Source of the DNA: Acidimicrobiia bacterium
GTDB lineage: Bacteria; Actinomycetota; Acidimicrobiia; Spongiisociales; UBA11373
Length of the DNA: 64,000 bases
Assembly (NCBI GenBank): GCA_029263095.1
Contig: JAJCYA010000043.1
Span: forward strand, 2,470-66,469
Reading direction: 5' to 3'
Shown here: in pieces, positions 3,780 to 52,305 of the stretch
How positions within the stretch are numbered: the first letter of the stretch is position 1
How the letters are laid out: every line of letters begins with the position of its first letter
Notes under the pieces: model-generated
Told to the model about the DNA's origin: nothing
The model's input: the letters and a program-made list of their open reading frames with translations, nothing else
The model's database searches: none
Program-made: the position numbers and the translations under genes

Positions 3780-4067
3780 GTGGCAGAGGAGAAGAGGACC
3801 CTGAGGCCCTACCAACCGGGTTGGTGGCTGCAGCGGCTCATCCTCGCCTACCGGACTTTGGTCTCCCCCATCTTGGGTCGTCGTTGTATCTACTTGCCGA
3901 CCTGTTCGGAGTATGCATTCGACGCCATAGGGGAATGGGGGGCACCTCGTGGCACGTGGATGGCCGTAAAGCGGGTCGGCCGATGCAATCCGCTAAGGGA
4001 AGGTGGACTAGATCCGGTACCCAAACGCACCGGTGAAGCCACGAACGTCGAGGTGGAGGCACACTGA
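3780..4067 (+). CDS. yidD: membrane protein insertion efficiency factor YidD
   Basis: LRPYQPGWWLQRLILAYRTLVSPILGRRCIYLPTCSEYAFDAIGEWGAPRGTWMAVKRVGRCNPL, with the YidD C-x-YxPTCSxY motif. GTG at 3780 preceded by GAGGAGGAG, 3 nt after the rnpA stop. Confidence 0.8.
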   Translation: MAEEKRTLRPYQPGWWLQRLILAYRTLVSPILGRRCIYLPTCSEYAFDAIGEWGAPRGTWMAVKRVGRCNPLREGGLDPVPKRTGEATNVEVEAH

Positions 4068-5017: not shown

Positions 5018-5908
5018 GTGTCGCCAGTCGAATGGGTTGAGGTTAGGGGCAAGGACATCGAGGTTGCCGTTGCCGCTGCGCTGGAGGAGCTTGGGTTGGC
5101 CAATGCCGAGGCCGCCGAAGTGGAGGTGCTGCAGGAGCCTGAGAAGGGATTCCTCGGAATGGGTGGCAGGGACGCAATCGTCAGGGTCAAGCCGAGGAAG
5201 ACGGCCGGCAAGAGACGTCGGCGAGGCGGTCGGGGGCGTAGCAACGGAGGAGGCTCCGGTTCCAAGGGGGAACCGAAGAAGACCCCGCCCGCGGCAGGTG
5301 CTGGAGCGAGGAAGGCGGCTCAGAAGGGCCAGAAGGCTCAGAAGGCCCAGAAGGAGCAGCCACGCCAACAGCAGCGTCCTCCGCGACAGCCGAGGCACCG
5401 CAACACCGAAGCAGGGAAACAGAAGGAGCAGAAGGTGGAAGTCGAAGTCGATCGGGGCGAACAGGCCGAGATGGTCAAGGACTTCCTCACGGGACTCCTC
5501 GACGCATTCGGTCTCGAGGGCAATGTGGAGTGCACGGTCGAGGACGACATCGTTCTGGCCAATGTGACTGGAGAACAGACCGAAGCCCTGGTGGGACCAA
5601 AGGGAGCCATCCTCCAGGCCACTCTGGAGTTGTCTCGAACCATTGTGCAACGCAAGTCCCAGGCTGGTGCCCGCATCAGGCTCGATATCGGTGGCTATAC
5701 CGAACGGCGCCGGGAGGCTCTCCGGATCTATACCGGCCGATTGGTCGAGAAGGTCACCGCGGAGGGCGGCGAGGTAATGCTGGAACCGATGAACGCGGCC
5801 GATCGCAAGGTTGTTCACGACGCTGCTGCCGATCTGGGGGGAGTACGGACCTTCTCAGAGGGAGAGGAACCGCGCCGATCTGTTGTGATCGCCCGCCTCG
5901 ACTCCTAG
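5018..5908 (+). CDS. jag: Jag/KhpB-family RNA-binding protein (Jag-N, KH and R3H domains)
   Basis: N-terminal Jag_N-like segment, a basic low-complexity linker, and a C-terminal KH/R3H region (GPKGAILQATLELSR...RKVVHDAAADLGGV). Conserved position after yidC. Confidence 0.8.
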   Translation: MSPVEWVEVRGKDIEVAVAAALEELGLANAEAAEVEVLQEPEKGFLGMGGRDAIVRVKPRKTAGKRRRRGGRGRSNGGGSGSKGEPKKTPPAAGAGARKAAQKGQKAQKAQKEQPRQQQRPPRQPRHRNTEAGKQKEQKVEVEVDRGEQAEMVKDFLTGLLDAFGLEGNVECTVEDDIVLANVTGEQTEALVGPKGAILQATLELSRTIVQRKSQAGARIRLDIGGYTERRREALRIYTGRLVEKVTAEGGEVMLEPMNAADRKVVHDAAADLGGVRTFSEGEEPRRSVVIARLDS

Positions 5909-6820: not shown

Positions 6821-7601
6821 GTCTTCAGACCGCGTAGTTGTCGCGGTCGCCAACCAAAAGGGTGGCGTGGGCAAGTCCACGACCACAATCAACATGGGTG
6901 CCGCGCTGGCCGCGATGGGTGAGCGGGTACTCATCGTGGATGGAGACCCCCAGTCCAACGCCACCTCGGGGCTGGGGGTGGACCGGCACGATGTGGCGGT
7001 CAACACCTACGACCTCATCCTTGGCCAGGGAGACATAGACGATGGGATTGAGCCGACCAGTGTAAAGGACCTGTTCGTCGTGGCCTCGTCGATTGATCTT
7101 GCGGCCGCTGAGATAGAACTCGTCGCCAGGATGTCGCGCGAGCACCTGCTGCGGCAGGCAGTCGACTCGATGGAGACCGACTTTGATGTCGTGTTGGTCG
7201 ACTGTCCCCCCAGCCTCGGTCTAATCACGGTCAATGCGTTGACCGCTGCCGACGAGGTACTCATTCCGATTCAGACCGAATACTACGCATTGGAGGGGCT
7301 GACGCAGCTGTTGCGGTCGATCGAAGCGATCCAATCACACCTAAACCCTCGACTACGAATCGAAGGAGCGGTGCTCACGATGTACGATCGGCGTACCACG
7401 CTGGCCGCTGAGGTGAGCGCGCAGGTTCGGGAGCACTTCGGGGATGTCACATATCGAACGGTCATCCCACGGACGGTACGACTCGCCGAGGCGCCCTCCT
7501 ATGGAGAACCGATCGAGTCATTCGATCCTAAGAGCAGAGGAGCGGTTGCCTATAGATCGCTCGCTACCGAATGGAGGAAGAGACATGGCCGCAGCACGTA
7601 A
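6813..7601 (+). CDS. parA: chromosome partitioning ATPase ParA/Soj
   Basis: Deviant Walker A VVVAVANQKGGVGKSTTT. GTG at 6813 overlaps the rsmG stop. A TTG at 6777 is an alternative start. Confidence 0.9.
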   Translation: MSKSSDRVVVAVANQKGGVGKSTTTINMGAALAAMGERVLIVDGDPQSNATSGLGVDRHDVAVNTYDLILGQGDIDDGIEPTSVKDLFVVASSIDLAAAEIELVARMSREHLLRQAVDSMETDFDVVLVDCPPSLGLITVNALTAADEVLIPIQTEYYALEGLTQLLRSIEAIQSHLNPRLRIEGAVLTMYDRRTTLAAEVSAQVREHFGDVTYRTVIPRTVRLAEAPSYGEPIESFDPKSRGAVAYRSLATEWRKRHGRST

Positions 7602-8460
7602 GTCCGGCTTGGGCCGCGGACTCGACGCTCTGCTGGCGGTTCAGAAGACCGAAGGCGGCGTCGGGACAATCCCGGTCGACCACATCGATCCGAATCCCCG
7701 TCAGCCTCGTTCCCGCTTTGACGAGGAGGCCCTCGAGGCTCTTGCGGCATCGATTCGCGAGGTGGGGGTGTTGCAGCCGATTGTCGTCGGACCCGCCGAC
7801 CCGGACGGACGCCACATGTTGGTCGCCGGTGAGCGGCGACTCCGAGCGAGCAGGCTCGCCGGGCTCGACGAGATCCCGGCCGTCGTTCGTGAGAGCGACG
7901 AGGCAACTCAGCTCGCAGAAGCACTCATCGAGAACATTCAGCGTGAGGATCTTGGTCCGCTGGAAGAGGCCGAAGCCTTTAGTGCCCTTATGGAAGATTT
8001 TGACATGAGGCATGAGGACGTCGCCCAGCGAGTAGGCAAGAGCAGATCGGCAATCACCAATGCGGTCAGGTTGCTCAACCTGCCGGGTCAAATACAAGGA
8101 CTCCTTGCCGAGGGTCTGCTCTCTGCCGGAGCGGGCAGAGCGCTACTCGGGCTGGAGGACGTCTCCTATGCGGTGGCAGTGGCGGAGAGGGCAGCAGCCG
8201 AGGAATGGTCGGTGCGCCAGGTAGAAGAAGCCGTGCGGGAAAGGCGCGACGCGCGGGAGGCTCCTGAGGCAGCGTCGAAAGAGCGGCGCTCCGAAAAGGA
8301 GAGGCCGGCGCAGATCATCGCCCTCGAGGAGCGTATGGCAGAAACATTGGGGACCAATGTCCAGATCAGATACGGATCTCGCGGCGGCGGCAAGATGGTC
8401 ATCAGGTTCGGATCACTCGATGATCTCGAACGTATCTACCGCGGCTTGATGGGGGAGTAG
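7585..8460 (+). CDS. parB: chromosome partitioning protein ParB/Spo0J
   Basis: Box motifs GLGRGLDALL and VLQPIVV, an HTH, and a C-terminal dimerisation domain. ATG at 7585 is preceded by GGAGGAAGAG and overlaps the parA 3' end by 17 nt. Confidence 0.9.
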   Translation: MAAARKSGLGRGLDALLAVQKTEGGVGTIPVDHIDPNPRQPRSRFDEEALEALAASIREVGVLQPIVVGPADPDGRHMLVAGERRLRASRLAGLDEIPAVVRESDEATQLAEALIENIQREDLGPLEEAEAFSALMEDFDMRHEDVAQRVGKSRSAITNAVRLLNLPGQIQGLLAEGLLSAGAGRALLGLEDVSYAVAVAERAAAEEWSVRQVEEAVRERRDAREAPEAASKERRSEKERPAQIIALEERMAETLGTNVQIRYGSRGGGKMVIRFGSLDDLERIYRGLMGE

Positions 8461-10843: not shown

Positions 10844-11154
10844 GCTTTGTCCTCGGTCTTGGTGCGGGTACGTCGCGACCAGAGCAACGCCCCTACCAGC
10901 ACGAATAATCCCCCGACGGCTCCGTAGGAGATCTCCATCGCTTGGGAACAGTCACATGCCTTGAACACCAGTTCCTCGAGGATCCGGAACAGCCCGAGCA
11001 TGAGGAAAATGAAGGCAACAACTACCAGCACCGCCGATACCAGGCCGAGGGCCACGAACATGATGACCCGAGCGACGCGATCGACGGTCAGCGCTCGGAT
11101 CCGAGTTGCCACCGACTCCAGGAAGTCGGCGACGCGTGTCGGGAATTCTTCCAC
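10840..11154 (-). CDS. small membrane protein (2 TM), translationally coupled to trxB (ATGA overlap)
   Basis: 104 aa with two hydrophobic helices ([27 protein letters not shown] ; [15 protein letters not shown]). Its stop overlaps the trxB start. Confidence 0.5.
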
Positions 11155-11192
11155 GACCTGAGGTTAGCGAGCGCTCGCCGGACCTTCCCTCA

Positions 11193-12119
11193 TCATGGAA
11201 TCACGATCAGATCTGCGCAGTCTGGAACACCCCAGACCTGGAATGGACCGACCTCGCCCCCGGTCAACTCGAAGTACACAACTACGGTGAGCTCGCCGTT
11301 CTCGTACTCGAAGAAGAAGCGCTGTGGTGGGGGATCGGAGCGGATCTCGGTGTCCTCGATCCAACAAGAGGTCTCTTCGATCGCATCCGCGGCCCTCGCA
11401 TTCACGGCTGCGGCGTCGCTCCTGATCACAGAAAGTTCGGCAGACAGTTGCGCAACCTGCTCCTCGCCTGTTGCCGAGGCAATCGATGTTGTGGTCGAGT
11501 CCTCCGCAGCTGCCTGCGTTGTCGTGGGGGCCGCCGCCGGTGCGGTCGTTGTGGTGGGACGTAGTGTCGTAGAGGAACCAAAGGCAGCTGCTTGGTCGGA
11601 ACCATCTCCACCTGGGATGAGGGCGTCGTCCGCATCCGCGCCGGCGACTGCCATGGATTCGACTTCAGGAGCCTCATCAGCTGTTGCGGCCCGTTGCTCG
11701 ACGGCCGCGGCGGCTGCAGTGGTCGTCGCTTCGGCCGGCAGTTCGATGGCCGCTGTGGCGTTGTCTCCATCGGTAGACAGGAGGCCGACGACCGGGACAA
11801 TGGCAACTAGACCCAGCAAGGCTGCGGCGGCAATACCGAGAGAGCCCCACGGGACACGGCGAACGGGCTGGGCTGTGCCCGGCTCAGGAGCCGCGACTCC
11901 GAGCGCGTCAGCCACCGCGGCTCGAAGTGTGGAACGTTCCTCAACCGAAAGCTCTGGCCGGGGAGCCCCCGACAATGCATCGAGAGCGATTCGATGTGCG
12001 GCGAGTTCAGCGGCAGCGATTGGGTCTGCTGCGATTTCGCGTTCGAGCGCTGCGGCTTCATCGGGATCGAGTCGTCCCTCGGCCAGCGCTGCGATTGCGT
12101 CACGGTCGTGTCTAGGCAT
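11193..12119 (-). CDS. anti-sigma factor (cytoplasmic N-domain, one TM, Ala/Thr-rich extracytoplasmic region); RsmA-like by position
   Basis: ATG at 12119 (MPRHDRDAIAALAEGRLDPDEAAALEREIA...) overlaps the sigma-gene stop by 8 nt (ATGCCTAG). Single TM LGIAAAALLGLVAIVPVVGLL. Same position as the anti-SigM gene of M. tuberculosis. Confidence 0.65.
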   Translation of the reverse strand: MPRHDRDAIAALAEGRLDPDEAAALEREIAADPIAAAELAAHRIALDALSGAPRPELSVEERSTLRAAVADALGVAAPEPGTAQPVRRVPWGSLGIAAAALLGLVAIVPVVGLLSTDGDNATAAIELPAEATTTAAAAAVEQRAATADEAPEVESMAVAGADADDALIPGGDGSDQAAAFGSSTTLRPTTTTAPAAAPTTTQAAAEDSTTTSIASATGEEQVAQLSAELSVIRSDAAAVNARAADAIEETSCWIEDTEIRSDPPPQRFFFEYENGELTVVVYFELTGGEVGPFQVWGVPDCADLIVIP

Positions 12120-12693
12120 TTGTCTCTTCACTCTGACTCTTGTGGTCACCTCTCAGGTTCCCGAGACTGTCGGCCAGGAGACGTCTCCCCCTGAACACCC
12201 TGGACTTGACGGTGCCGATCGGGACCCCGAGAGCGTCCGAAACCGTTTCCAGTGACAGGCCCTCGAGGTCGGACAAGATCACCGCCGCTTTGAACTCCGC
12301 CGGCAGAGAATCGAGTGCTTCCTCAATCTCTGGTCGGACCTCTGCGGACTCGAATTCGTCGCCGGCAGTGGGATCAGTCGGATCGATTCCCTCCGGCAGC
12401 GGATCTGTCTTCCTGCGCTGCGTACGGCGAGCAACGTCATAGCAAGTGTTCACCGCAACTCGGTACAGCCAAGTACTAAACGCCGACCTTCCGGCGAACC
12501 GATCGGCCTTGCGGAATACGGCGATGAATGTCTCCTGCGTCGCGTCGAGCGCGGCCTCGCGGTCACGCAACATCCTGAGACAGATTGAGAACACTCGATC
12601 CTCGTGGGCTCGCATGAGGGAGTCGAATGCATCGACATCGCCGGCAAGGTACTGCTCGATGAGGGCCGCATCGTCGGCGGCACGGTCGGTCAC
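12112..12693 (-). CDS. ECF RNA polymerase sigma factor (SigM-like by synteny)
   Basis: Sigma-70 region 2 (LIEQYLAGDVDAFDSLMRAHEDRVFSICLRML...FSTWLYRVAVNT) and region 4 (LSDLEGLSLETVSDALGVPIGTVKSRVFRGRRLL). The track ORF starts at a TTG at 12900. GTG at 12693 (VTDRAADDAAL...) gives a canonical ~190-aa ECF sigma. Confidence 0.8.
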   Translation of the reverse strand: MTDRAADDAALIEQYLAGDVDAFDSLMRAHEDRVFSICLRMLRDREAALDATQETFIAVFRKADRFAGRSAFSTWLYRVAVNTCYDVARRTQRRKTDPLPEGIDPTDPTAGDEFESAEVRPEIEEALDSLPAEFKAAVILSDLEGLSLETVSDALGVPIGTVKSRVFRGRRLLADSLGNLRGDHKSQSEETNA

Positions 12694-27213: not shown

Positions 27214-28871
27214 TGCGGCGGTTGGCACTGATCGCTGTGGTGCTGAGTCTGGTGATCGCGGCATGTGGTGACGACGACGCGGTGTCGATCTTCACCTCGA
27301 CTTCGAACGGGTCCAGCTCTTTCGCGACGACGGGCGATATTGAGCCCTATCCCGCTCCCGTTGTTGAAGAGTACGTGACTGGATGCGCCGGAGAAGCCGA
27401 CGAGGGTCTGTGTCGCTGCACTATCGCCGAGTTCCAGCAGCGACTTACCTTGATCGAGTTCCTCGAATTGGTCGATACCGATCTCGATACCAGCCCCGTA
27501 GTGCAGGACGTGATACAGCTTTGCCTCACAGATGGATTCAGCGATTCGACGACCACCACGGTCGTCGCCGCCTCGACCACCACCATGGTCGTCGCTGCCT
27601 CGACCACAACGACCGCTCCCGAGTTTGAAGCGATCACCGACATCGAGACGATCACCCGCCTGACGATTGACGACCTGGAACAGTGGTGGTCGGCCGAGCT
27701 GCCGACGGTGTTTGGCACTGAGTACGAATCGGTGAGCGAATTCGGCCCCTACTTCATCTCGCAGGGTGATATTCCATTCTGCGGCGGTCCGCTCAAGCGA
27801 GACCAGTTCGAGGGCAACGCGTTCTACTGCTGGATCGACGACACGGTGCAGTGGGACGCCGAGGGCCTCATGGCGCCACTGTTTCAGGAATTTGGCGATT
27901 TTACCGTCGCTCTCGTACTCGCCCACGAGTGGGGGCATGCCGTCCAGGCCAGGTTCGGTTTTGACGACGTCAACCAGCCGACGATCGTGAGTGAACTCCA
28001 GGCGGACTGCTTGGCCGGCTCATGGACCGGCCGGATCGCTCGCGAGGAGAGTGACCTTCTACGCCTGGAGACCGGCGATCTTGAGGAGGCGATGGCCGGC
28101 TTCCTGCTGATAGGTGACGAGATCGGTACCGCCCCCGGAGGGGCCAACGCCCACGGTGGTTCATTCGATCGTCTCAACGCGTTCTTCGAGGGTTTCAACG
28201 AGGGCACCCCCGAGTGTGCAACTTATGAGGATTCGCCTCCGGACATCGTGTTCATCCCAGTCCTGATCAGCGAGGACCCGAACGAGAACCTCCTCGATCT
28301 TCCGCTCGCCACTGTGGCGCCGCAGCTTGTTGAGGCTCTCGAGGTGTTTTGGGCGATCGTCTATCCCGAGGTCTTCAGCTCCCCTTGGATTCCCGTGTCC
28401 GACACGATTCCGTATAGGCCGTCGGCGGGAGCGTTTCCGTCGTGTGGAGGATCCACCTTCGACCAGGCGTTCTATGAGGGCAATGCCTTCTACTGCTCGG
28501 CCGACGACTACGTGGCTTGGGATGACGAGGGGCTGTTCCCCGATCTCTACGGCGAGATCGGTGACTTTGCCATCGGGTTGGTGCTCGCCAACGAGTGGGG
28601 TCGGGCCGTCCAAAACCGAGCAGGGCTCCCGATCGAAACCGTGGCCGCCCAGCTCCAGGTGGACTGCCTCACAGGGGTGTGGACTGCCGCGCTCATCCCA
28701 GACGACAACCCCACAGCCATCCGCTTGTCGGCGGGTGATCTGGAGGAGGGAATCGCCGGCTTCCTGACCCTGCCGGCGAATCCGGGCGAGGGTGGCTACG
28801 TGTCGGCGTTCGACCGCTTTGAATCGTTCAAGGAAGGCTTCTTCCTCGGCACAGACGCGTGTGAACTCTGA
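27195..28871 (+). CDS. lipoprotein with two tandem YpfJ-like putative neutral Zn-metallopeptidase domains (first HEWGH intact, second NEWGR degenerate)
   Basis: Signal peptide plus lipobox (LVIAAC). Domain 1: AFYCWIDDTV...GDFTVALVLAHEWGHAVQ...ELQADCLAGSW...GDLEEA...IGDE...HG-S-DR. Domain 2 is the same pattern but reads LANEWGRAVQ. Thr-rich linker between the lipobox and domain 1. Confidence 0.75.
   Translation: MARVALMRRLALIAVVLSLVIAACGDDDAVSIFTSTSNGSSSFATTGDIEPYPAPVVEEYVTGCAGEADEGLCRCTIAEFQQRLTLIEFLELVDTDLDTSPVVQDVIQLCLTDGFSDSTTTTVVAASTTTMVVAASTTTTAPEFEAITDIETITRLTIDDLEQWWSAELPTVFGTEYESVSEFGPYFISQGDIPFCGGPLKRDQFEGNAFYCWIDDTVQWDAEGLMAPLFQEFGDFTVALVLAHEWGHAVQARFGFDDVNQPTIVSELQADCLAGSWTGRIAREESDLLRLETGDLEEAMAGFLLIGDEIGTAPGGANAHGGSFDRLNAFFEGFNEGTPECATYEDSPPDIVFIPVLISEDPNENLLDLPLATVAPQLVEALEVFWAIVYPEVFSSPWIPVSDTIPYRPSAGAFPSCGGSTFDQAFYEGNAFYCSADDYVAWDDEGLFPDLYGEIGDFAIGLVLANEWGRAVQNRAGLPIETVAAQLQVDCLTGVWTAALIPDDNPTAIRLSAGDLEEGIAGFLTLPANPGEGGYVSAFDRFESFKEGFFLGTDACEL
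27561..27614 (+). repeat. 27-bp in-frame tandem duplication inside the lipoprotein linker (VVAASTTT x2)
   Basis: gtcgtcgccgcctcgaccaccaccatg / gtcgtcgctgcctcgaccacaacgacc. Confidence 0.7.
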
Positions 28872-29641
28872 TGAATGCTCGTGACCTCATCCGCCGGCCG
28901 CTGTATCGGGTGTATGAGCAGCGTCTCCTTCGATCTCTGGATCGAATGCCCCACCACATCGGGGTGATTCATGATGGGCATCGTCGGTTTGCGAGAGAAT
29001 CCGGGCTTCCCGACTATGAAGCCTCCTATCGGGCGGGGATGGACAAGTTCGTGGAGTTCCTCGGCTGGTGCAAGGACTTCGAGATCCCGGCCGTGACTTG
29101 CTGGCTCTTGTCGCAGGAGAACCTCAACCGACCGGATGACGAGCTCAAGCCGTACTACCGGGTACTCATGGAGCTCTTCGACCGGCTGCCCGGCGATGTT
29201 CCCGACGCCCGAATCCGCGTCGTTGGAAGCCTCCACCTACTACCGGAGGATCTTCGCCAATCGGCGGAGCAGCTCGTCGAGCGATGCGGGTCGGGTTCAC
29301 GGCGGATCACGATCGCGCTCGCATACGGTGGACGCCAAGAGATTGTGGATGCGGTACGCGATCTGGTCGGCAAGCTGCGGGCGGAAGGGCTGGACGGTGC
29401 CGACCTCACTTCGGGAATCGATGCCGATACTCTCTCGGCTCACCTCTACACCGCAGACCTGCCGGATCCGGATCTGGTAATCCGAACCAGCGGCGAGAGC
29501 CGGTTGTCGGGGTTCCTGCTGTGGCAGGCGGCGTATGCCGAATACTCGTTCGTCGATGTCTTTTGGCCCGAGTTCCGTCGGGTCGACTTCCTGCGGGCAC
29601 TACGCGAATACACCCTGCGCGAACGCCGCTTCGGCCGCTAA
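28871..29641 (+). CDS. uppS: isoprenyl transferase (undecaprenyl/decaprenyl diphosphate synthase family, cis-prenyltransferase)
   Basis: 256 aa. Signature PHHIGVIHDGHRRFA (DGNRRWA-type) and ...RTSGESRLSGFLLWQAAYAEYSF. Start overlaps the lipoprotein stop. Confidence 0.9.
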   Translation: MNARDLIRRPLYRVYEQRLLRSLDRMPHHIGVIHDGHRRFARESGLPDYEASYRAGMDKFVEFLGWCKDFEIPAVTCWLLSQENLNRPDDELKPYYRVLMELFDRLPGDVPDARIRVVGSLHLLPEDLRQSAEQLVERCGSGSRRITIALAYGGRQEIVDAVRDLVGKLRAEGLDGADLTSGIDADTLSAHLYTADLPDPDLVIRTSGESRLSGFLLWQAAYAEYSFVDVFWPEFRRVDFLRALREYTLRERRFGR

Positions 29642-29825
29642 AGAAGTATCACTCCCCCCGGTCTTGACACCAATGGGGAGTAGTTCAGATCGGACAACTC
29701 TCCCCTTTGGGGGGAGTCAAACACCGCAGGTGTTTGGTGGGGGGTGCGACCCGTGCGGCGGAGTCGCGTCACCGACGCTATTCGTGGTGGTGGTGGCCCG
29801 GACCCGGGCCATCGTTAGCTCCCCG

Positions 29826-29975
29826 TCAACAGCCGGGTTCACCGTGGTTGCCGCAGCAGGTCGAACCGGTCCGGAGCTTTCTCCAATTGTTCTTGACCGA
29901 CTTGGTGACCTTGGTGACGGTTGGATCCTCGGATTGGCGCCAGTTGGCGAAGAAGCTGATGTCTTTGAAACCCAT
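29826..29975 (-). CDS. candidate small protein (49 aa) with Cys-rich C-terminus, absent from the ORF track
   Basis: Reverse-strand ATG..TGA: MGFKDISFFANWRQSEDPTVTKVTKSVKNNWRKLRTGSTCCGNHGEPGC. Third-codon-position GC is strongly elevated, as in the neighbouring genes. Lies 70 nt downstream of the histidine-phosphatase stop. No SD, but a TAGTCT -10-like hexamer sits 6 nt upstream, compatible with a leaderless mRNA. Confidence 0.35.
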   Translation of the reverse strand: MGFKDISFFANWRQSEDPTVTKVTKSVKNNWRKLRTGSTCCGNHGEPGC

Positions 29976-30044
29976 GTTGGGAGACTAGGGAATAGGCAGG
30001 CATCTCCTCCGCAATGGCGAGAGGGGTCGGATGGCTGCCACTAC

Positions 30045-30719
30045 CTATCTCGTCAGGTAGGCCGGCGCCAGATGGGCGACGCTGTTTGCTTCCCACAGAC
30101 TCATGACGTGCTCGCCCGCGAGAGGTGTCGTTTGGAGTCGGATGATCCCCCCATGATTGGACACGAACCGTTCCCATTCCCACGGGGTTGGGTCAAGACC
30201 GAGCATATGTCCCAGGATGACAGCGTTGGTCCCGCCGTGAGCGACGATGACAATCCGGTGGTGGGTTCCGACGTCGTGCCAAAGGTGCTGGGTGGAGAGC
30301 CGCTGCACTCCGCGGTGGCGAAGTAGGGCTTCGATTGCCTCAGTCACACGCACGTGGAAGTCGCGGAATGACTCCCCACCTGCGATCCCATCCCACCACT
30401 CGCTGAGCGGACGGTCTCGTGCCTCGCGAAAGGTGCGCTCCACAACGTGGCTCGGTGTGTCGTCAAAGGGAACCCGGATCTCGACGAGATCGGCAATGGT
30501 GATGGCGGTCTTGCCGATGGAGTGCTCCAGTGGCTCGGCCGTTTCCACCGCGCGCCGTGCCGGAGAAACCAGAATGTCGTCGATACCGTCGAGCGCCGCC
30601 AACCTCGCCGCCACCGCGCGCGCTTGTGCAACGCCCAGAGGTGTCAGGCTCGGATCAGGAAGGGTTCTCCCGTCATCGATCCATGCGGGCTCACCGTGCC
30701 GAACAAGAATGATCTCCAT
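30045..30719 (-). CDS. histidine phosphatase (phosphoglycerate-mutase-like) family protein
   Basis: N-terminal ILVRHGEP catalytic motif. ATG at 30719 (MEIILVRHGE...). Track start 30728 is a TTG. Confidence 0.8.
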   Translation of the reverse strand: MEIILVRHGEPAWIDDGRTLPDPSLTPLGVAQARAVAARLAALDGIDDILVSPARRAVETAEPLEHSIGKTAITIADLVEIRVPFDDTPSHVVERTFREARDRPLSEWWDGIAGGESFRDFHVRVTEAIEALLRHRGVQRLSTQHLWHDVGTHHRIVIVAHGGTNAVILGHMLGLDPTPWEWERFVSNHGGIIRLQTTPLAGEHVMSLWEANSVAHLAPAYLTR

Positions 30720-30943
30720 GTCAGCCAATCGACTCGATACGGCGGATTATGGAAACAATCGTAGAGGTCCGCGCACGAGCGAGCGGCCAGCCCGCAGGTT
30801 GGCCGCCCGTCTCGAGGGAGGAAACGCCGTCTTCGACGACACTACGAACATCGTCATCTGGCGAGATCGCTTGAGCGTTTCTGGAGTGCCGCCGACGGAT
30901 CAGTTCGCCTCCTGGTCCGGCTTCTGCAATACAGTGTCTTTCC

Positions 30944-31558
30944 GTGAACATCACTGTGTCCCGATCTCCGTTGCGTCTGTTGACATTTGCACTGCTCGCG
31001 GTACCGGCGGTTCTGCTTGCGGTGGATATGACGGTCTCGCACCGGTGGATCCGCGCCCCTGAGTCGTCGGAGGTCGTTGTCGGGCAGACGTCGGACGAAT
31101 CGGGGGAGATGGTCGACCTGACCAAGGACGTACTCACCGACGTTGGACGGGCCGAACGTCGCCGTGACCTCCTCTTCGGCGGTGCTCTGTTCGTTGGTGG
31201 CGCGGCAGCGATGGCTTGGGCTCTCAAGGAACTCGCACGGCCGACGAGATTCCTGATCGCGGATGATGATGGGCTGCTCATCAAGGTCGATGGGGTTCGC
31301 CGCGCGCCGCGCCGCATTGCCTGGTCCGGTATCGCGGAAGTACGGTCTGGCCTGATCGAGGACGACGGTGTCGAGACACCCGTTCTGTCGATTCGCCTCG
31401 TCGATCCTGAAGCGGTTCCCCGCCTCCCGGCAGGAGGTCTCTCCGACCCGCCTTGGCTGCATCTGTTCTCCGACGAATGGGACAAGCCGGCTCATCGTGT
31501 CGCTGCGCTGCTGGAGCACCAGGTCGGAAAGGGCCAACCTGTCGGGGAGCCGGAGTGA
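30944..31558 (+). CDS. membrane protein with two TM helices followed by a bacterial PH (bPH_2-like) domain
   Basis: TM1 [16 protein letters not shown] and TM2 [19 protein letters not shown], then a ~100-aa soluble domain. GTG start. Stop overlaps the nfo GTG (GTGA). Confidence 0.5.
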
Positions 31559-40166: not shown

Positions 40167-42134
40167 ATGCCTCGGCTTCTGCTCTTTGGCGTTCTTGTTG
40201 TGGTTGTGAGCGCTTGCACCGGCGCAGAGTCGGTCTCGACCACCACCACTGTGGCGCCGCCGGAGACGACAACGACATCGACCATTCCCACGCCTTCGCG
40301 CCAGGGGATGGTTCCGGCACCCGACCTCGTCCGCAGTGCTGCCGCCGCTCGTGAGATCACCCAATTCGAGGCCGACCTGTACCTGTCGCTGGCCATGTTC
40401 TCGGTCCCAGACGCGATTCCCTTTGAGTATCTGGTACCTATCGCAGAGGCGGGCGCGGCGCAGTGGGATCACTCGGCGACGACGCGGCTCATCGAGCGAT
40501 GGGACGAACTCGACAGCGGTAGTCAGGAGGAGCTGTTGGATGCGGTTGATGGGTTGGCCGACCTGATCGAAGGCGACGCTCAGGGTTGTATCCCAATCAC
40601 ATCAGTGGATGCGGTGATCTGCGTGGGAGAAAGCATCTCGCACGACCAAGCCTTGGATCTTCCGCTGGGAGATGCTGCGGCGATCGTTCGTCCCTGGGTG
40701 CGGGAGGCGATGGAGGATTCCTGGCCCATGTTCGAGTCATTGTTCGGAGCTGAGCCCCAAGTGGTCGAGGTCTTTCTGTCCGATCTGACGGCGACGGGTG
40801 GGTACACCTTTGGGGCGGAGACCGGCGTGTGTCATCTATACGTGGATGTGTTGGCTCTCGAGGCGACCGACGACGGCCTGGTACACGCGGGTGATTCGAA
40901 CATCCCCGATGGTGTTCCCCTCCGTGCCCAGGTGCATGCGGCAGTCGCTCACCAGTTGTTCCACTGCTTCCAACGGGTAGCCCTGGCCGACTTCGACACG
41001 GCTCTGTGGGAGGGGACCGCGGTTTGGGCCGAGCACCACATCTACCCGACATCCAACACTGAGCTTCCCTGGATGGAAACCTGGATTTCGGATCCCGATA
41101 CGGCGTTCTCTGATCGCCTGTATGACGCGTCGTTCGTCTTCCTATATGCCGATCTCATGGGGGACGGAGAAGGTGCGGTGGCGGAAGTTCTCGAGGGCAA
41201 CGCGATCGCCCGACTCGATGCGGGATTCGAGGAGTTCTGGCATGAGATATCGGTCGCGGCGTGGAATCAGGGTCCGGTGGGCGCGTTGGTCGATGATGGC
41301 GGTGCTGCGCTCACCGCGACCGTCGGCGACCTCGATTCTGCGCCGATCGCGCCCGAGATCCAGGGAGAGATGAAGTTCTCGCTACCGCTCTACAGCCGTG
41401 ACACTCAGGCATTCGAATTCTTGAGCCCAGCCGATATGGAAGCCGCAGATCTGACCCGTCTGTGGCTCGACCTGTCGCGAGTGCCGAGTGATGTAAAGGT
41501 GTCGGCGATCGCCGAGACCGCTGAAGGCTGGTTGGATCCGGTTCTGCTGACCGGCGCCGAATGGGAGTTTTGCTGGGCGGCGATAGGTGCCTGTAGTGAT
41601 GTCGAACCGACGACGGTGCACACCTTTGCCCGAATAGTTCTGATCGCCACCAACGTCGACAACGGCGTTGAGACCTTCTCTATCCCGTGGCACACCTTCA
41701 ACCCGCACTTGACCGGAACTTGGGTGAGGGTGCAGGGGCCGATCTCTACGGTCGGCACCTCCCCGTTCTGGGTGATTGGAACCGAGCTCGGATTCGACGA
41801 GACGGCGCGGCTGATGACCGAAACCACCAGTGATTGGTCGCTTGCCAACGCCGAGACGGGTTGGGAGTGCACCCTTGCGGGTGAGTACTCGATCGGCGCC
41901 GACCCGGAGTACGGCGCTCCCGAATTGGGCAACGTGAGCGGCACGATCACTGTTGTCGGTCCCAGTGCGGGGGAGACGTTCACCAACGACTGCCTGCTCG
42001 GTGGCGTTGCGGCGAGCGGGGTTCATACTCCGATCGCTGAGGGCGGTGAGACGGTCGGATTCGAGATTCGCGATTACGACACCCTGTGGGTGTACGCCTT
42101 CGAGCGTTTCTACGTGTACGAACGGATCAGCTGA
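40167..42134 (+). CDS. large hypothetical lipoprotein (655 aa)
   Basis: Signal peptide plus lipobox (VVVVSAC), a Thr-rich linker, and no recognisable catalytic motif. One HQLFH segment is not a convincing HExxH. Confidence 0.55.
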   Translation: MPRLLLFGVLVVVVSACTGAESVSTTTTVAPPETTTTSTIPTPSRQGMVPAPDLVRSAAAAREITQFEADLYLSLAMFSVPDAIPFEYLVPIAEAGAAQWDHSATTRLIERWDELDSGSQEELLDAVDGLADLIEGDAQGCIPITSVDAVICVGESISHDQALDLPLGDAAAIVRPWVREAMEDSWPMFESLFGAEPQVVEVFLSDLTATGGYTFGAETGVCHLYVDVLALEATDDGLVHAGDSNIPDGVPLRAQVHAAVAHQLFHCFQRVALADFDTALWEGTAVWAEHHIYPTSNTELPWMETWISDPDTAFSDRLYDASFVFLYADLMGDGEGAVAEVLEGNAIARLDAGFEEFWHEISVAAWNQGPVGALVDDGGAALTATVGDLDSAPIAPEIQGEMKFSLPLYSRDTQAFEFLSPADMEAADLTRLWLDLSRVPSDVKVSAIAETAEGWLDPVLLTGAEWEFCWAAIGACSDVEPTTVHTFARIVLIATNVDNGVETFSIPWHTFNPHLTGTWVRVQGPISTVGTSPFWVIGTELGFDETARLMTETTSDWSLANAETGWECTLAGEYSIGADPEYGAPELGNVSGTITVVGPSAGETFTNDCLLGGVAASGVHTPIAEGGETVGFEIRDYDTLWVYAFERFYVYERIS

Positions 42135-45365: not shown

Positions 45366-46724
45366 ATGACAACTCAACTCGAGGGCCCGAGGACCATCCC
45401 CTCTGGGGTGCCACCACACAACGTGGAGGCCGAGGAGAGCGTTCTCGGCGCGGTCATGTTGTCTGCCGACGCGGCAGCCGTAGCTCTCGAGCAGCTTCGC
45501 CCAGAGGACTTCTACCGACCGCCGCACCAGTCGGTCTTCGAGGCGATCACGGCACTCTTTGACGGCAATCAGGCGATCGATGCGATCACTGTTAGTGATT
45601 GGCTGCGGCGCAACGACGACCTCGAGCGGGTGGGCGGGATTTCCTTCCTCAACCACCTCATGGACACGGTGCCCGCCACGTCGAACGTCGGCTACTACGT
45701 GGACATCGTGGACGAGACGGCGTCGCGTCGCCGGCTGATGAGAGCAGGTTCGACGGTGGCGCAGATCGCAATGCAGAGCGAGCGTGCGATCGATGAGGTA
45801 CTCGATTCGGCTGAAGCGGAAGTCTTTGCCGTTGCAGACCGTCATGTCGGAGAGGGTCTCTCTCGCCTCGGCCCGATCCTGCAGGACACCCTCGAGAAGA
45901 TCGAGGAGATCGGCACCCGTGGGGGAGACATCACCGGCGTCCCCACCGGCTTCAAGGATCTCGACAAGAAGCTCGCAGGGCTGCATCCCGCCAACCTGGT
46001 GGTGATCGCGGCTCGACCCTCGATGGGGAAGAGCGCGCTGGCGCTCAATATCGCCCAAAACGTCGCTGAGATCGGCAAGCCCATTGCCGTCTTCACATTG
46101 GAAATGAGCCGCGAGGAGGTGGTCCAGAGGCTGCTGTCTTCGATGGCCTCAGTTGACTCGCACAAACTCCGGACCGGTCAACTCGGACCCGAGATGTGGC
46201 AGAAGCTTGCCAGGGAATCCTCTCGCCTTTATGAGATGCCTTTCTACGTGGATGACTCACCGGATCTGACGGTCACTGCGATTCGCGCCAAGTGCCGTCG
46301 GTTGAAGCGCAAGTCGGATCTCGGTCTCGTGGTCGTTGACTACCTGCAGCTCATGCAGGGTCCGACCCGCAGCGATAACCGTCAGCAGGAGATTGCTGAG
46401 ATCAGCCGTTCCCTGAAGAACCTCGCTCGCGAGCTTCATGTGCCGGTGATTGCCGTGTCACAGTTGAACAGGCAGTTGGAGCAGAGGGAGAACAAGCGTC
46501 CCCGGCTCGGCGACCTGAGGGAATCGGGCGCCATCGAGCAGGACGCCGACATTGTGATGTTCATCTACCGAGATGAGTACTACAACGCGGAGAATCCAGA
46601 GACCCGCGGTATTGCCGAGGTCAGTGTCGCCAAGCACCGCGCCGGAGCCACCGGGACCGTCATGATGACGTTTGCGGCGGAGTTCACCCGGTTCCGCAAC
46701 TTCACCCGTTCGGACCCGATCTAG
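45366..46724 (+). CDS. dnaB: replicative DNA helicase DnaB (no intein)
   Basis: 452 aa. N-terminal domain, Walker A ARPSMGKSALAL, and RecA-like C-domain motifs. Length excludes an intein insertion. Confidence 0.95.
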   Translation: MTTQLEGPRTIPSGVPPHNVEAEESVLGAVMLSADAAAVALEQLRPEDFYRPPHQSVFEAITALFDGNQAIDAITVSDWLRRNDDLERVGGISFLNHLMDTVPATSNVGYYVDIVDETASRRRLMRAGSTVAQIAMQSERAIDEVLDSAEAEVFAVADRHVGEGLSRLGPILQDTLEKIEEIGTRGGDITGVPTGFKDLDKKLAGLHPANLVVIAARPSMGKSALALNIAQNVAEIGKPIAVFTLEMSREEVVQRLLSSMASVDSHKLRTGQLGPEMWQKLARESSRLYEMPFYVDDSPDLTVTAIRAKCRRLKRKSDLGLVVVDYLQLMQGPTRSDNRQQEIAEISRSLKNLARELHVPVIAVSQLNRQLEQRENKRPRLGDLRESGAIEQDADIVMFIYRDEYYNAENPETRGIAEVSVAKHRAGATGTVMMTFAAEFTRFRNFTRSDPI

Positions 46725-48850: not shown

Positions 48851-51379
48851 TTAGTCGCGGATCCTACCCCTGATGACCAGGACGACCTCAAGCGGCGTTC
48901 CACCCCTTGGATCGGTTGGGTGGAACTCGATGGTGATGTCACCAGCCTCGAATTCGGCAATCGTGAAGGTCGTCGTCACATTGGCACTCCAGGAGTCGTA
49001 CCGGTGATCGTCGTACGCGATGCACCCCGGACTCGCCGACCTGTCCCTCTGCCTGGCATGGAAGGAGACGGTCACGGTGACCTCCTCACCCCACATGTCC
49101 GTTGCGGTCCGAGTGTGCGCTCCCGGTCCGGGCCCGATGGTGTCTGGGAGGCAGCGTGTCCTCTCCTGCATCTCGAAGTCCACACCGTTGATCCCGACGG
49201 TATACCGATCCACCGAGGAGCCCAAGCCACCTGCCGTCCACACTGTGTAGGCCACGTCGTGTCCATCGGTCCACCCGGTGCCACGGAAGTAGGTGGCGCC
49301 GGGGTGCTCGGGGAGTCCCGGCGCCACGTCGGCGAAGGCGGCGCTATTGCCCGCTTCGTCCTCGACTTCGAGGACCACCGAGTACCGAGTCAGCAGGCAC
49401 AACCCGTCCAGCCGGAAGGAGTAGGTCTGCCTGAATCCTCCCGAGGCAAAACTCGGATCAGCGCCAGAGAGGCACGGCTCTCCCAGCAGGGACGCGGCCA
49501 GGCGGACGGGTCGGTCGAATTCGGCTGTGACTCGGAGCCCATCTTGCCCGTCGGCGTCAACGCCACTGGTGAGAGTGTCGATCCTGATCTGCGACGGAAG
49601 TCCTTCGGCCTCCTCAGGGAGCGGCTCAAACACGATGGGGGTTCCGGTTTGCCACCGGTCGCCGCCCCTGTCCGAGCCTTCCACGAAGAAGGCATGGACT
49701 ATCAGCAGCGGTCCCTGCTCGGCTTCCGTGGAGAGATTCACCTCGAAGGTCTGAAAGCCACGAGGCGAGGTTGGATCAAGGGAAAGAGCGAACTCACCTC
49801 GGTCGCCTCCAGGGGTGACGAAGGATCCGGTGGTGGGAATCCGAATCTGTCTGCCGCCGTAGTCGCACAGGGTGGGGTCGCCAGGCACGGCTAGAAACTC
49901 CCGAATGGTCATGTCGCTGGGCGGGATGGTCAGGCTGCGCAACTCCGATGCACATGACAGTCGGACCGTGTAGGAATCCGCCGCGAGGGCTCTGCCGGAG
50001 AGATTCTGGACGGCTTTGGCGGTGACGATTGCAGTAAGGCGGTTTGGCGTGGTGATCCACCGGCGCTCGCGCTCCACCACGACCGACCCGTCGAACGACC
50101 GGTCGGCAGATTCGAGCCACCAGATGCATACGAGGTAGGTCGAACCCTCCTCCAGGTCGATGACGTTGATGATCCGTTGCCGGTTGTACGCCGGATCGTA
50201 TGGCCACGACGGACTCGCCTCGTCGTAGGCGGTCTCGGAACCCCAGTCGAGCAGAATCCCGCTCTCTTCGGCGGGGAGCACCTCTCCGAAGCGGCCGTCC
50301 GCTTCAACCTCGGCACACGTCGTGGGGTCGCTGTGGTGGACGAGGCTGAGAGTCGCTGCCTGGGTGGCCTTTACCGGGATGAATGCTCGGATGGCGTTGT
50401 CGTCGAGCGGGTTCAACACCACCGGTGGCCGCGGCCCTTCTCTGATGTCGACGTTGTAGGTCTTCGAGGCAGTGACACCGGCGAAGCTGGTGGCATCCAC
50501 TTCGACGGCATATTGAGTCCAGGGGCCATCGGAGGGCACCAGGATGAAGCACTCTCGTGGCCACGGACTGGTGGCGAGCCGGCTCTCGGCCGCGTTGTCG
50601 GCGAACCGGAGGAACTCGGGGTGGTCGAAGTCGGCGTTGGAGACGGTCAGGGTGGTGGGAGGGCCGGCCCGGCTCGGAACCGGGTGGTACGTGATCTCGA
50701 ACTCGGCCGGGTGGTTTGCCCACAGGAACAGCGGTCGATCGCCCTCACCTGGCGTTCCGCAGGCCGATCCAGTCCCGGAGGCGTCCTTCAGTGTTGCGCC
50801 CAGCCGGAAATCGCCGAGCGATTCGAGGCCGCCGCCGAGCGGGGCCAGCACCGTACCTCCGACCCCGGCCGGACAGCCGGGTAGACCTGTGTCGTCGGCG
50901 CAGAAGTCGAGGAACCGAAATTGGGGGAATTCGAGGAACTCGAAGAAGAGATCTCCGGTAAAGAGTCCCTCGAATAGGGGATCGATCTCGACCGGCGCAA
51001 ACGGGTCCTCGCGCAGCGGAGCGACCGTCAGTTCGGTGCTGTCGCCAGAGCTGGCATCAGTGGTGCCATCACCGCCCTCCGTGGTTCCGCCACCGCTACT
51101 ACCTCTGGCAGCACCGCTGGCGACAAAGCTGCCGGAGTCGACCGGCACGTACCCGGCCTGAGCGGACTCGGGTGGCTGCACGAGATCGACCGGTGCATCT
51201 GAGTCGGTATCGGTGATCGGACTGGCGGCGAAGACCTCAATGGGGTCCCCCAGGGCTCCGGGAAGCCGTGGCTCTCCTCCGCCCTGATCGGTAAAGGAGT
51301 CGGCGGCGACGAGCCCGATCACCAGACTGGCGACAAACACCAGACCGGAGGTAAAACCGAGGAGCGTGTTGCGGTTCAT
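48851..51379 (-). CDS. large hypothetical secreted/membrane-anchored protein (~843 aa)
   Basis: N-terminal signal anchor LLGFTSGLVFVASLVIGLVAA. No recognisable catalytic motifs. The ATG at 51379 gives an ATGA overlap with the upstream gene's stop. Track start 51388 is the alternative. Confidence 0.6.
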   Translation of the reverse strand: MNRNTLLGFTSGLVFVASLVIGLVAADSFTDQGGGEPRLPGALGDPIEVFAASPITDTDSDAPVDLVQPPESAQAGYVPVDSGSFVASGAARGSSGGGTTEGGDGTTDASSGDSTELTVAPLREDPFAPVEIDPLFEGLFTGDLFFEFLEFPQFRFLDFCADDTGLPGCPAGVGGTVLAPLGGGLESLGDFRLGATLKDASGTGSACGTPGEGDRPLFLWANHPAEFEITYHPVPSRAGPPTTLTVSNADFDHPEFLRFADNAAESRLATSPWPRECFILVPSDGPWTQYAVEVDATSFAGVTASKTYNVDIREGPRPPVVLNPLDDNAIRAFIPVKATQAATLSLVHHSDPTTCAEVEADGRFGEVLPAEESGILLDWGSETAYDEASPSWPYDPAYNRQRIINVIDLEEGSTYLVCIWWLESADRSFDGSVVVERERRWITTPNRLTAIVTAKAVQNLSGRALAADSYTVRLSCASELRSLTIPPSDMTIREFLAVPGDPTLCDYGGRQIRIPTTGSFVTPGGDRGEFALSLDPTSPRGFQTFEVNLSTEAEQGPLLIVHAFFVEGSDRGGDRWQTGTPIVFEPLPEEAEGLPSQIRIDTLTSGVDADGQDGLRVTAEFDRPVRLAASLLGEPCLSGADPSFASGGFRQTYSFRLDGLCLLTRYSVVLEVEDEAGNSAAFADVAPGLPEHPGATYFRGTGWTDGHDVAYTVWTAGGLGSSVDRYTVGINGVDFEMQERTRCLPDTIGPGPGAHTRTATDMWGEEVTVTVSFHARQRDRSASPGCIAYDDHRYDSWSANVTTTFTIAEFEAGDITIEFHPTDPRGGTPLEVVLVIRGRIRD

Positions 51380-52305
51380 CCGAAACACTCTCCGATCTCG
51401 ATGGCCGTGACGTTGACCGCCACCGACGACTCGTTGCCCGAGGTGTCACGGGCCGTCATGGTCACCGTGAAGGTGTGATCGAACGGCGCCACCGAAACCG
51501 CTTCCCAAGTATCTGCCGGGTAGGGGCCCACCGTGGCCGTGTAGGTGTTGCCGCCGGCAGCCATTCCCACGTTGTGGGTTCCGAGGGCGTCGGTCCAACT
51601 GGCGGTGACGCTGGCGATGCCACCGTCGTCTGTGACGACGGCCAAGACGGTCGACTGGCGCGGCTCGGGCGGCGAGCAAGTGATGTTGAAGGCTCCACCG
51701 TCCAACTCCCAGATCGTCCCCGGACTGGCCTGCTGTTGCCCGATCGAGGGCGGGGTGGTGTCGGCGGCGACCGTGGTATTGGTGGGTGGCGGAGCCTGGG
51801 TGGTGGCTGTGGTCTCGGTCGTGGTCGGTGCTTCAGTGGTCACCGTTGTCTCGGGCGCTTCGGTGGTAGCGGTCGTCTCGGGTGTCGCGGTGGTGACGGT
51901 TGTCACTGCGGCGGCGACGGCTTCGACCGGAACGTTGCAGGCGAAGACCGGCAGATCGGTGGTGTCGCCGTCGGGGAGCACCTGGTGCGCTCGCATCCAC
52001 ACCCGAGTATTGGGAGCGTTCGGCGATCGGATCTCGGCCCAATCCCCCGATGCATCGCGCCCGGTGATGAAAACGCGATCACCCCGGGTAACCGTTCCTA
52101 GAGCGTCCCCGTCGGGGCAGTCGAAATAGGAGGCGACCGCCGCGTCGGCGAGAACGGCGGGCTCACCGACCAGGCTCGCCGCCCCGGTGAGACCGAGAAG
52201 TGCGCCGACGATCAGTCCGGCGATGACGGAGCCTCCCAGCAGGGTGGCGATGAGGTTCGCCGCGGCACCGCGTTCACTCACTTGTTCCCTCTCATGTCGA
52301 TTCAC
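51376..52305 (-). CDS. membrane-anchored protein with a bacterial SH3-like domain, Thr-rich linker and a C-terminal Ig-like region
   Basis: Cytoplasmic N-terminus, TM LIATLLGGSVIAGLIVGALLGLTG, then ASYFDCPDGDALGTVTRGDRVFITGRDASGDWAEIRSP...VWM resembling SH3b. TTVTTATPETTATTEAPETTVTTEAPTTTETTATT linker. Confidence 0.55.
   Translation of the reverse strand: MNRHEREQVSERGAAANLIATLLGGSVIAGLIVGALLGLTGAASLVGEPAVLADAAVASYFDCPDGDALGTVTRGDRVFITGRDASGDWAEIRSPNAPNTRVWMRAHQVLPDGDTTDLPVFACNVPVEAVAAAVTTVTTATPETTATTEAPETTVTTEAPTTTETTATTQAPPPTNTTVAADTTPPSIGQQQASPGTIWELDGGAFNITCSPPEPRQSTVLAVVTDDGGIASVTASWTDALGTHNVGMAAGGNTYTATVGPYPADTWEAVSVAPFDHTFTVTMTARDTSGNESSVAVNVTAIEIGECFG

Follow-up and report, generated by a model that had tools for sequence, protein, structure and literature searches.

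We examined a small gene in a 64-kb stretch (64,000 nucleotides, hereafter the window) of contig JAJCYA010000043.1 from an Acidimicrobiia bacterium. The starting point was a Cys-rich open reading frame (ORF) on the minus strand, which the original prediction had described as an unannotated small gene of 49 amino acids (aa) lying 70 nt after a histidine-phosphatase stop. This ORF is present, and its translation, MGFKDISFFANWRQSEDPTVTKVTKSVKNNWRKLRTGSTCCGNHGEPGC, was confirmed; it comprises 49 codons and a TGA codon, and it ends in the motif CCGNHGEPGC. It lies downstream of a His_Phos_1 gene on the same strand, in the order predicted but at a measured distance of 69 nt, and is convergent with the gene for undecaprenyl-diphosphate synthase (UppS; Table 1). 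GC content at codon positions 1, 2 and 3 is 0.40, 0.52 and 0.76, so that the elevated third-position GC (GC3) claimed for the ORF was borne out, the flanking genes having GC3 of 0.66-0.76. The predicted lack of a Shine-Dalgarno sequence upstream was also confirmed. Read-through of the TGA adds 15 codons, RGANDGPGPGHHHHE, before an in-frame TAG.

Homologues at 36 other loci keep the same reading frame. A word-index search found four metagenomic peptides with 66-80% identity, in all of which the C-terminal half, NNWRKLRTGSTCCGNHG(E/Q)PGC, is invariant, and when one genome per species was scanned, 20 loci came to light, in Acidimicrobiia metagenome-assembled genomes (MAGs) and in Chloroflexota (Dehalococcoidia, Anaerolineales and Tepidiformaceae). 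An exhaustive HMMER search (E<=1e-3) yielded 192 representative clusters at 50% identity, nearly all of them of about 45-60 aa and with matches reaching the last residue of the protein. Among 90% clusters, a profile search returned 2,715 entries, every one of them a "hypothetical protein" with no Pfam domain. Further named sources of the family were Thermoleophilia and Nitriliruptorales on the Actinomycetota side, and a Syntrophomonadaceae MAG.

Pairwise comparison of six gapless Acidimicrobiia versions of the ORF gave ratios of nonsynonymous to synonymous substitution rates (dN/dS) of 0.08-0.25, at synonymous rates (dS) of 0.14-1.9, and in the last 21 codons each pair differed by 4-10 synonymous changes as against 0-2 nonsynonymous ones. 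These low dN/dS values indicate that the ORF is under purifying selection and is a real gene rather than a chance ORF, and the same-frame conservation with synonymous drift that the original prediction had proposed as a check was found among the homologues. What did not stand was the end assigned to the gene: the ORF belongs to a real, conserved, protein-coding gene, but its TGA is probably a selenocysteine (Sec) codon, as set out below.

No known family was recovered with these sequences. The 49-aa peptide had no match in Pfam or NCBIfam, and 84 family members searched against the same two collections gave only 4-5 unrelated chance matches (E ~0.09-0.25). Five full-length forms, in which C stood in for U and one of which ends in URR-stop, had none at E<=10. 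A profile search of the PDB returned chance calponin-domain matches only (E 0.38 and above), tblastn against the PLSDB plasmids gave no match, and a text search of the literature for the motif found nothing relevant.

The TGA codon and the downstream hairpin

One account of the locus is a plain 49-aa Cys-rich protein, for which the TGA would be a true stop, the hairpin that follows it a terminator or an mRNA-stabilising structure, and any conservation downstream a matter of RNA only. Gene callers in all of the source databases do stop at PGC, and TGA is the commonest stop codon in this genome, ending 28 of 54 (52%) of the window's likely genes. However, TGA followed ...PGC in 36 of 36 TGA-form loci that we read (35 loci and, later, locus L037), whereas the next in-frame stops of the same loci were a mixture of TAG, TAA and TGA.

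Translation through the TGA also argues against this account, as the His-rich tails stay in frame. In Acidimicrobiia the read-through tail, U-RG(A/P)xDGPGPGH.H..., is conserved in frame. Several Chloroflexota have a tail of the form U-QVA...(H/D-rich), and that of locus L033 reads U-VSAHPPREGGSSDHPHHHHHDHGEDHGHDDGTG. The Dehalococcoidia keep two codons, giving U-RR, U-RK or U-RQ, and then have an immediate second stop (TAA or TAG), an arrangement that a plain stop at the TGA would not explain. Similar H/D-rich tails occur after the UGA in L001-L011, L032, L033 and L037, and likewise after Cys in homologues with a Cys codon at this position; as these tails are short and of low complexity, their similarity past the UGA is weaker evidence than that of a globular domain would be. 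We also observed that the sequence after the stop is as conserved in Acidimicrobiia as the gene itself (TGA CGG GG. ... GGCCCGGGTCCGGGCC AC. CAC ...).

Homologues with Cys at the position of the TGA (Cys-forms) were found in eleven clusters (P0050, P0066, P0122, P0276, P0283, P0284, P0285, P0296, P0297, P0265 and P0317), and these continue into the same kind of tail, for example ...PGCCVGPDGSGSDPHDHDHDH, ...PGCCQVDPSGGAGNHHHANPH and ...GCCIASQPEHGSHHHHDH. At the DNA level the codon is TGT in locus L035 and TGC in locus L036, the latter of which shares the window's convergent UppS synteny. The "C-U-Q-V-A..." tails of TGA-forms have their counterpart in the "C-C-Q-V..." tails of Cys-forms, a correspondence that a true stop codon would not predict. 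A separate group of database entries (P0060, P0067, P0095, P0150 and P0275) reads "PGCW..."; for P0095 (L037, 1153..1393) the DNA has TGA codons where the entry has W, because the source pipeline applied an alternative genetic code, and its translation accidentally exposes the read-through tail.

Downstream of the TGA in the window is a hairpin with a 7-bp stem and a folding energy of -13.2 kcal/mol. Under a fixed criterion (a stem of 5 bp or more, of which 4 or more are G-C pairs, a loop of 3-7 nt with GU in it, and 10-33 nt from the U of UGA to the start of the loop), such a hairpin was found in 27 of 30 distinct family flanks, where it is GC-rich, lies 16-23 nt after the UGA and has loops beginning 19-26 nt from its U. 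Of 558 TGA stops that end long ORFs at these loci, 37 (6.6%) passed the same test, as did 5.8% of TGAs taken at random. With a stricter scan of the whole 64 kb, which called for a TGA after at least 40 open codons with GC3 >=0.66 and then a hairpin of at least 6 bp, exactly one site was found, and it is this TGA.

The stems themselves have diverged, with 18 distinct stems among 19 lineages. In a loop-anchored alignment of 15 diverse loci, compensatory double changes were present in all six pairs, the G and U of the loop were invariant, and 31 double-change cells were counted relative to 9.2 in shuffles, with 0 of 500 shuffles reaching the observed value. For hairpins inside coding sequence, the distance from the U of UGA to the loop GU is 22 or 25 nt, a step of 3 nt; the offsets of hairpins that come after URR-stop do not keep to multiples of three.

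These properties fit a bacterial selenocysteine insertion sequence (SECIS). The consensus bacterial SECIS has a loop of 3-9 nt, a stem of 4-16 bp, a G in the first two loop positions, a spacing of 16-37 nt and a minimum free energy of -7.5 or below, and the window hairpin lies within every one of the limits quoted (PMC13188914). Like the SECIS of the Escherichia coli fdhF type, it is a stem-loop just 3' of the UGA whose apical loop is small and has G followed by U; here the loop is GGUC, with the G-U about 22-25 nt from the U of UGA. The fdhF loop is also GGUC, and its G23 and U24 are essential. The two differ in that the window stem is unrelated in sequence and more GC-rich, and no bulged U was identified in it.

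The original prediction had placed a hairpin-rich terminator region at this point. The hairpins are there, and the 191-nt stretch 29640..29830 folds with z = -4.1, which would suit a plain protein followed by a terminator; but a scan of 29550..30150 found no intrinsic terminator, and the hairpin, which is followed by CCACCACCACCACGAA, has no T-tract. Nor would a terminator require a loop GU that is invariant and held at a fixed distance from the UGA, or spacing in 3-nt steps. The first downstream hairpin is thus probably a SECIS and not a terminator. Other strong hairpins lie between the TAG and the stop of the convergent uppS gene; among them are AAACACCUGCGGUGUUU and a stem, a long one, formed by CUCCCCCC...GGGGGGAG, and they may terminate transcription of both genes, acting in either direction.

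The invariance of the TGA, the pairing of Cys with Sec at this site, the in-frame tails and the covarying SECIS-like hairpin together suggest that the terminal TGA is most likely a selenocysteine codon. We therefore believe that it is best read as such and that the gene runs beyond the end of the ORF. A full coding sequence through the TGA is proposed on the basis of its translation, of the in-frame tails of the relatives and of the Cys-forms that continue into similar tails, and we are confident that the locus encodes a selenoprotein of 65 residues, of which the ORF supplies the first 49 codons. Haft and Gwadz expect of a new selenoprotein family at least 10 examples, TGA in 100% of them, similarity through U and a SECIS; Cys homologues are also among the field's criteria (PMC13188914). 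The present family displays all of these features. With the evidence for a selenoprotein taken together, a plain 49-aa protein seems unlikely, as homologues with a Cys codon at the same position run into matching tails.

Several observations weigh against a selenoprotein. Three of the 30 flanks failed the strict hairpin criterion (L006 with one mismatch, L013 with a 4-bp stem and L021 with a loop lacking GU). The hairpins used for covariation were loop-anchored and self-selected, so that the 96.7% pairing found in the loop-anchored register, compared with 33-55% in slid registers, is partly so by construction. When the raw 44-nt flanks were put through MAFFT and RNAalifold unsupervised, no pairs emerged, two lineage groups having been aligned out of register, and the loop-anchored alignment was used instead. 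No Rfam SECIS model matched, and a scan of 29000..30800 gave only chance hits to mir-456 and Whalefall-1 (E 0.3-0.75); bacterial SECIS elements are poorly represented in Rfam. The Cys-form at L035 (642..848) keeps a SECIS-like hairpin, GGGUCCG-GUU-CGGACCC, at the usual distance, so the hairpin alone is not diagnostic. This retention suggests a possible relic of a recent Sec-to-Cys conversion; in the other Cys-form, L036 (TGC), the hairpin is lost.

The machinery for selenocysteine belongs to the same side of the argument, and its absence from view is also what a plain protein would lead one to expect. No tRNA-Sec, selA, selB or selD was found in the window, and 64 kb of sequence neither supports nor refutes their presence in the genome. 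No tRNA gene of any kind lies in the window, a search for tRNA-Sec in 25 family loci found none, and a Pfam scan of about 30 window proteins (DnaA, ParB, DnaB, ArgG/H, PyrB/F/D, PrkA and others) included no SelA, SelB or SelD. The Sec machinery is universal in Actinomarina, a member of the Acidimicrobiia (bioRxiv 10.64898/2026.04.03.716425), and Dehalococcoidia are among the most selenoprotein-rich bacteria (PMC13326102). We infer its presence in this genome from such support at class level. Actual Sec insertion, the metal or redox chemistry discussed below and the leaderless start are likewise inferred.

A precursor of a ribosomally synthesized and post-translationally modified peptide (RiPP) had been raised by the original prediction, and would have an N-terminal leader, a CCGNHGEPGC(U) core and modifying enzymes encoded elsewhere. 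The peptide is short with a Cys-rich C-terminus, and one class of bacteriocins is known to contain selenocysteine (Table 1 of PMC13188914). Nonetheless, we consider this very unlikely. Across about 37 loci no conserved maturase, protease or exporter adjoins the gene, and no radical-SAM, YcaO/cyclodehydratase or lanthipeptide-type gene recurs nearby, so that the partner genes that would have marked a RiPP-like core were not found. In addition, the gene is single-copy in each locus examined and sits in unrelated, housekeeping-type neighbourhoods, no NCBIfam RiPP model matched, and purifying selection acts over its whole length with no pattern of variable core and conserved leader.

Recoding of the UGA other than by Sec, whether by hairpin-stimulated near-cognate insertion of Trp or Cys or by a lineage-specific genetic code, is less probable still: hairpins are able to stimulate read-through and one source pipeline did render the TGA as W (P0095), but TGA is a normal stop here that ends 28 of 54 ordinary window genes, the loop sequence and spacing of the hairpin agree with a SECIS of the SelB type, homologues that lack the TGA invariably have Cys as the aligned residue, the classic signature of Sec/Cys exchange, and the host classes include documented users of Sec.

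Start region and gene neighbourhood

The proposed selenoprotein gene of the Acidimicrobiia appears, from its upstream sequence, to have its own promoter and may give a leaderless mRNA. A -10-like TANNNT hexamer (TAGTCT in the window) precedes the ATG in 7 of 8 Acidimicrobiia loci, at a spacing of 6 nt in the window and in L001, L005, L006, L007 and L008 and of 5 nt in L002; in L003 its place is taken by AGGAGA. A scan for promoter consensus was negative, and TAGTCT had no sigma-70 consensus match. The possible leaderless start raised by the original prediction gains support from the conserved position of the hexamer in the relatives, though not from the consensus scan.

No conserved partner gene was found across the approximately 37 loci, and the neighbourhoods are lineage-specific. 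In Acidimicrobiia the order is AP_endonuc_2, a hypothetical gene, His_Phos_1 and then the family gene, convergent with UppS; the neighbours elsewhere include Vut_1, sulfotransferase, DHH/DHHA1, LeuCD and CinA. In several Chloroflexota (L029..L031, L012 and L009) the family gene directly follows leuC and leuD, which encode an Fe-S dehydratase. Its start overlaps the LeuD stop in L029..L031 and is translationally coupled in L029, and this adjacency is confined to those Chloroflexota lineages.

The hypothetical gene of the Acidimicrobiia order is a 204-aa ORF with no Pfam match, homologues of which are present in all Acidimicrobiia loci. It sits between the AP_endonuc_2 and His_Phos_1 genes in the window and in L006-L008 and L010, and it overlaps the start of the called endonuclease ORF by about 100 nt; one start call of this pair is probably wrong. 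Two ORFs that overlap the selenoprotein gene (Table 1) were rejected as genes, as each overlaps the conserved coding sequence or the end of the His_Phos_1 gene. Elsewhere in the window, four large ORFs had no Pfam hit at E<=1e-5 and have GC3 of 0.63-0.76. The homologues of DnaA, ParB and DnaB make it probable that the replication origin region of the chromosome lies within the window or next to it.

Table 1. Positions of the proposed selenoprotein gene, its signals and other features of the window
Feature	Position	Strand	Remarks
Proposed full selenoprotein coding sequence	29778..29975	-	65 codons and TAG: MGFKDISFFANWRQSEDPTVTKVTKSVKNNWRKLRTGSTCCGNHGEPGC-U-RGANDGPGPGHHHHE
Pre-Sec part (ORF of the original prediction)	29826..29975	-	49 codons and TGA; used for dN/dS and the AlphaFold2 model
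In-frame UGA, proposed Sec codon	29826..29828	-	Residue 50, right after Cys49, giving a Cys-Sec pair
Post-Sec tail RGANDGPGPGHHHHE	29781..29825	-	Gly/Pro/Asp linker and His4 run; overlaps the SECIS hairpin
Proposed true stop, TAG	29778..29780	-	
Proposed bacterial SECIS, UGGCCCG-GGUC-CGGGCCA	29794..29811	-	Apical loop GGUC at 29801..29804; loop 21 nt after UGA
TAGTCT, -10-like TANNNT hexamer, candidate promoter	29982..29987	-	6 nt upstream of ATG
Further strong hairpins, between TAG and uppS stop	29640..29777	-	
His_Phos_1 gene	30045..30728	-	
UppS gene	28871..29641	+	
204-aa ORF	30944..31558	+	
Overlapping ORF, rejected	29839..30183	-	GC3 only 0.50
Overlapping ORF, rejected	29707..29988	+	
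Large ORF without Pfam hit	3890..5818	-	642 aa
Large ORF without Pfam hit	10942..12255	+	437 aa
Large ORF without Pfam hit	40167..42134	+	655 aa
Large ORF without Pfam hit	48851..51388	-	845 aa
DnaA homologue	1492..2859	-	
ParB homologue	7444..8460	+	
DnaB homologue	45366..46724	+	

Predicted protein and possible function

An AlphaFold2 model of the pre-Sec part, built with an alignment of 113 sequences, has helices at residues 4-14 and 19-36 and leaves the segment 37-49, which bears the CCGNHGEPGC end, unstructured. The mean pLDDT (predicted local distance difference test) of this model is a modest 64.9, which is a further point against the functional part of our proposal. In an alignment of 84 sequences the invariant or nearly invariant residues were N11, K22, N29, C40, C41, G42, G45, G48 and C49, with Sec50 next. 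As C40, C41, G42, G45, G48 and C49 are among these and Sec follows them, we place the functional end of the protein, as predicted from its sequence, at C-C-G-(N/H)-x-G-(E/Q)-(P/V)-G-C-U, that is, at two vicinal chalcogen pairs with a Gly/Pro turn between them.

No part of the protein is better conserved than its C-terminal Cys cluster, and the suggestion in the original prediction that this cluster could bind metal is plausible; His-rich N-terminal extensions or His/Asp-rich post-Sec tails recur in the family. Many members from Chloroflexota start with Met-Cys (MCGKEDD, MCDIDEN, MCEPGED and others) and so have one further Cys, and in other members the N-terminus is extended by a His-rich stretch such as MNDKDHEHSHHHKQPHQH...; the window protein has neither feature.

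In the mechanism that we propose, translation would start at the ATG at 29975, probably on a leaderless mRNA, and the ribosome would not terminate at the UGA (29828..29826). The stem-loop 21 nt downstream would recruit SelB with Sec-tRNA(Sec) and GTP, Sec would be inserted, and translation would continue through RGANDGPGPGHHHHE to the TAG (29780..29778). The product would be a small basic two-helix domain with a flexible end bearing the pairs Cys40-Cys41 and Cys49-Sec50, set apart by the conserved Gly/Pro turn (G-N/H-x-G-E/Q-P-G) and followed after Sec by the His-rich tail. Three thiols and one selenol, helped by His, might then form a soft-metal centre, a redox centre or both, and the protein might be a small chaperone or buffer for metals, or else a redox arm of Cys and Sec that is free-standing. 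Among the possible functions, a part in metal handling seems to us a prospect slightly short of even, and a redox role a somewhat fainter one.

For a metal role, one possibility is a chaperone or buffer for Ni, Cu, Hg or As, which by analogy would be reminiscent of the ligation of Ni by three Cys and one Sec in [NiFeSe] hydrogenase. For a redox role, the possible analogue is thioredoxin reductase, as a free-standing version of its Gly-Cys-Sec arm. The mammalian enzyme has a flexible C-terminal Gly-Cys-Sec-Gly redox arm, and adjacent Cys and Sec can form a selenenylsulfide. The window protein likewise has Gly-Cys-Sec on a flexible C-terminal segment, with which the C40-C41 dithiol could exchange, but it is a free-standing protein of about 7 kDa that has no flavoprotein domain and no homology to the reductase.

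Relation to known selenoproteins and significance

A catalogue from 2026 lists 119 prokaryotic selenoprotein families, among which those with a C-terminal Sec or a CU motif are KCU-star/DUF466, UXX-star 1 and 2, SaoC, MbdU, SaoL and HgcA (PMC13188914). Full-length forms of the window family, with U replaced by C, matched none of the corresponding hidden Markov models (HMMs; NF033934, NF041114, NF041211, NF040734, NF040728, NF040727, NF040863 and NF045648). The resemblance to the catalogued CU families is functional or architectural, and is not one of membership.

In KCU-star/DUF466 (NF033934), the E. coli proteins YbdD and YjiX end in Arg-Cys-Cys-COOH, and the forms from Campylobacter and Helicobacter end in Lys-Cys-Sec-COOH. 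These proteins are, like those of the window family, small (about 65 aa), basic and cytoplasmic, with a vicinal Cys-Cys or Cys-Sec end, and their Sec forms are annotated short at the UGA. However, no sequence similarity links the two (no Pfam or NCBIfam hit at E<=10), and the window family has a second CC pair seven residues upstream, usually has a post-Sec tail and is not located beside a CstA-type transporter.

The Dehalococcoidia relatives, which end in U-R-R, U-R-K or U-R-Q and a stop, resemble the UXX-star 1 and 2 families in having Sec third from the C-terminus and a SECIS in the 3' untranslated region (UTR). Sec has been suggested to be a metal ligand in the UXX-star families (PMC13188914). 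Their motifs are UxxT and GxGU, in contrast to GCU here, their HMMs did not match, and the window protein has a 15-residue tail rather than UXX-stop. With SaoC, SaoL, SaoB, HgcA and MbdU the window family shares a vicinal Cys-Sec pair and a place in the database "dark matter" of proteins cut at the UGA, and the CU pair has been read by Haft and Gwadz as a heavy-metal-interacting site; it differs from them in having no HMM match, no signal peptide and no SAO or Hgc neighbourhood. An uncharacterised selenoprotein family of 78 aa has been reported in Actinomarina (bioRxiv 10.64898/2026.04.03.716425), and this family, known by its description, might be related to that of the window.

Most selenoprotein families have many Cys homologues, unlike the window family, which is almost entirely in the Sec form. 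Tentatively, and as a proposal that we hold to be possible rather than probable, the locus represents a widespread, uncatalogued and mostly Sec-form family of Acidimicrobiia, other Actinomycetota, Chloroflexota and some Firmicutes that carries a soft-metal site or a redox arm. Neither Pfam nor NCBIfam release 20 nor the 119-family catalogue of 2026 contains such a family. The pairing of CC with CU across a fixed Gly/Pro turn, together with His-rich tails, is unusual, and would offer a compact system of about 7 kDa for the contribution of selenium to metal binding or to thiol-selenol redox chemistry. The URR-stop forms would place the SECIS in the 3' UTR, and a stop codon plus a conserved hairpin after a terminal Cys would be a useful flag for hidden selenoproteins.

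For the window itself, the gene model shifts from a 49-aa peptide to a 65-aa selenoprotein, and, by extension, database entries with ...PGC at their end, of which there are thousands, have probably been cut short at a Sec codon. If the proposal is true, a large fraction of what these phyla list as "about 50-aa hypothetical proteins" would consist of mis-called selenoproteins, and counts of selenoproteins in abundant lineages of sea and soil would have been too low.

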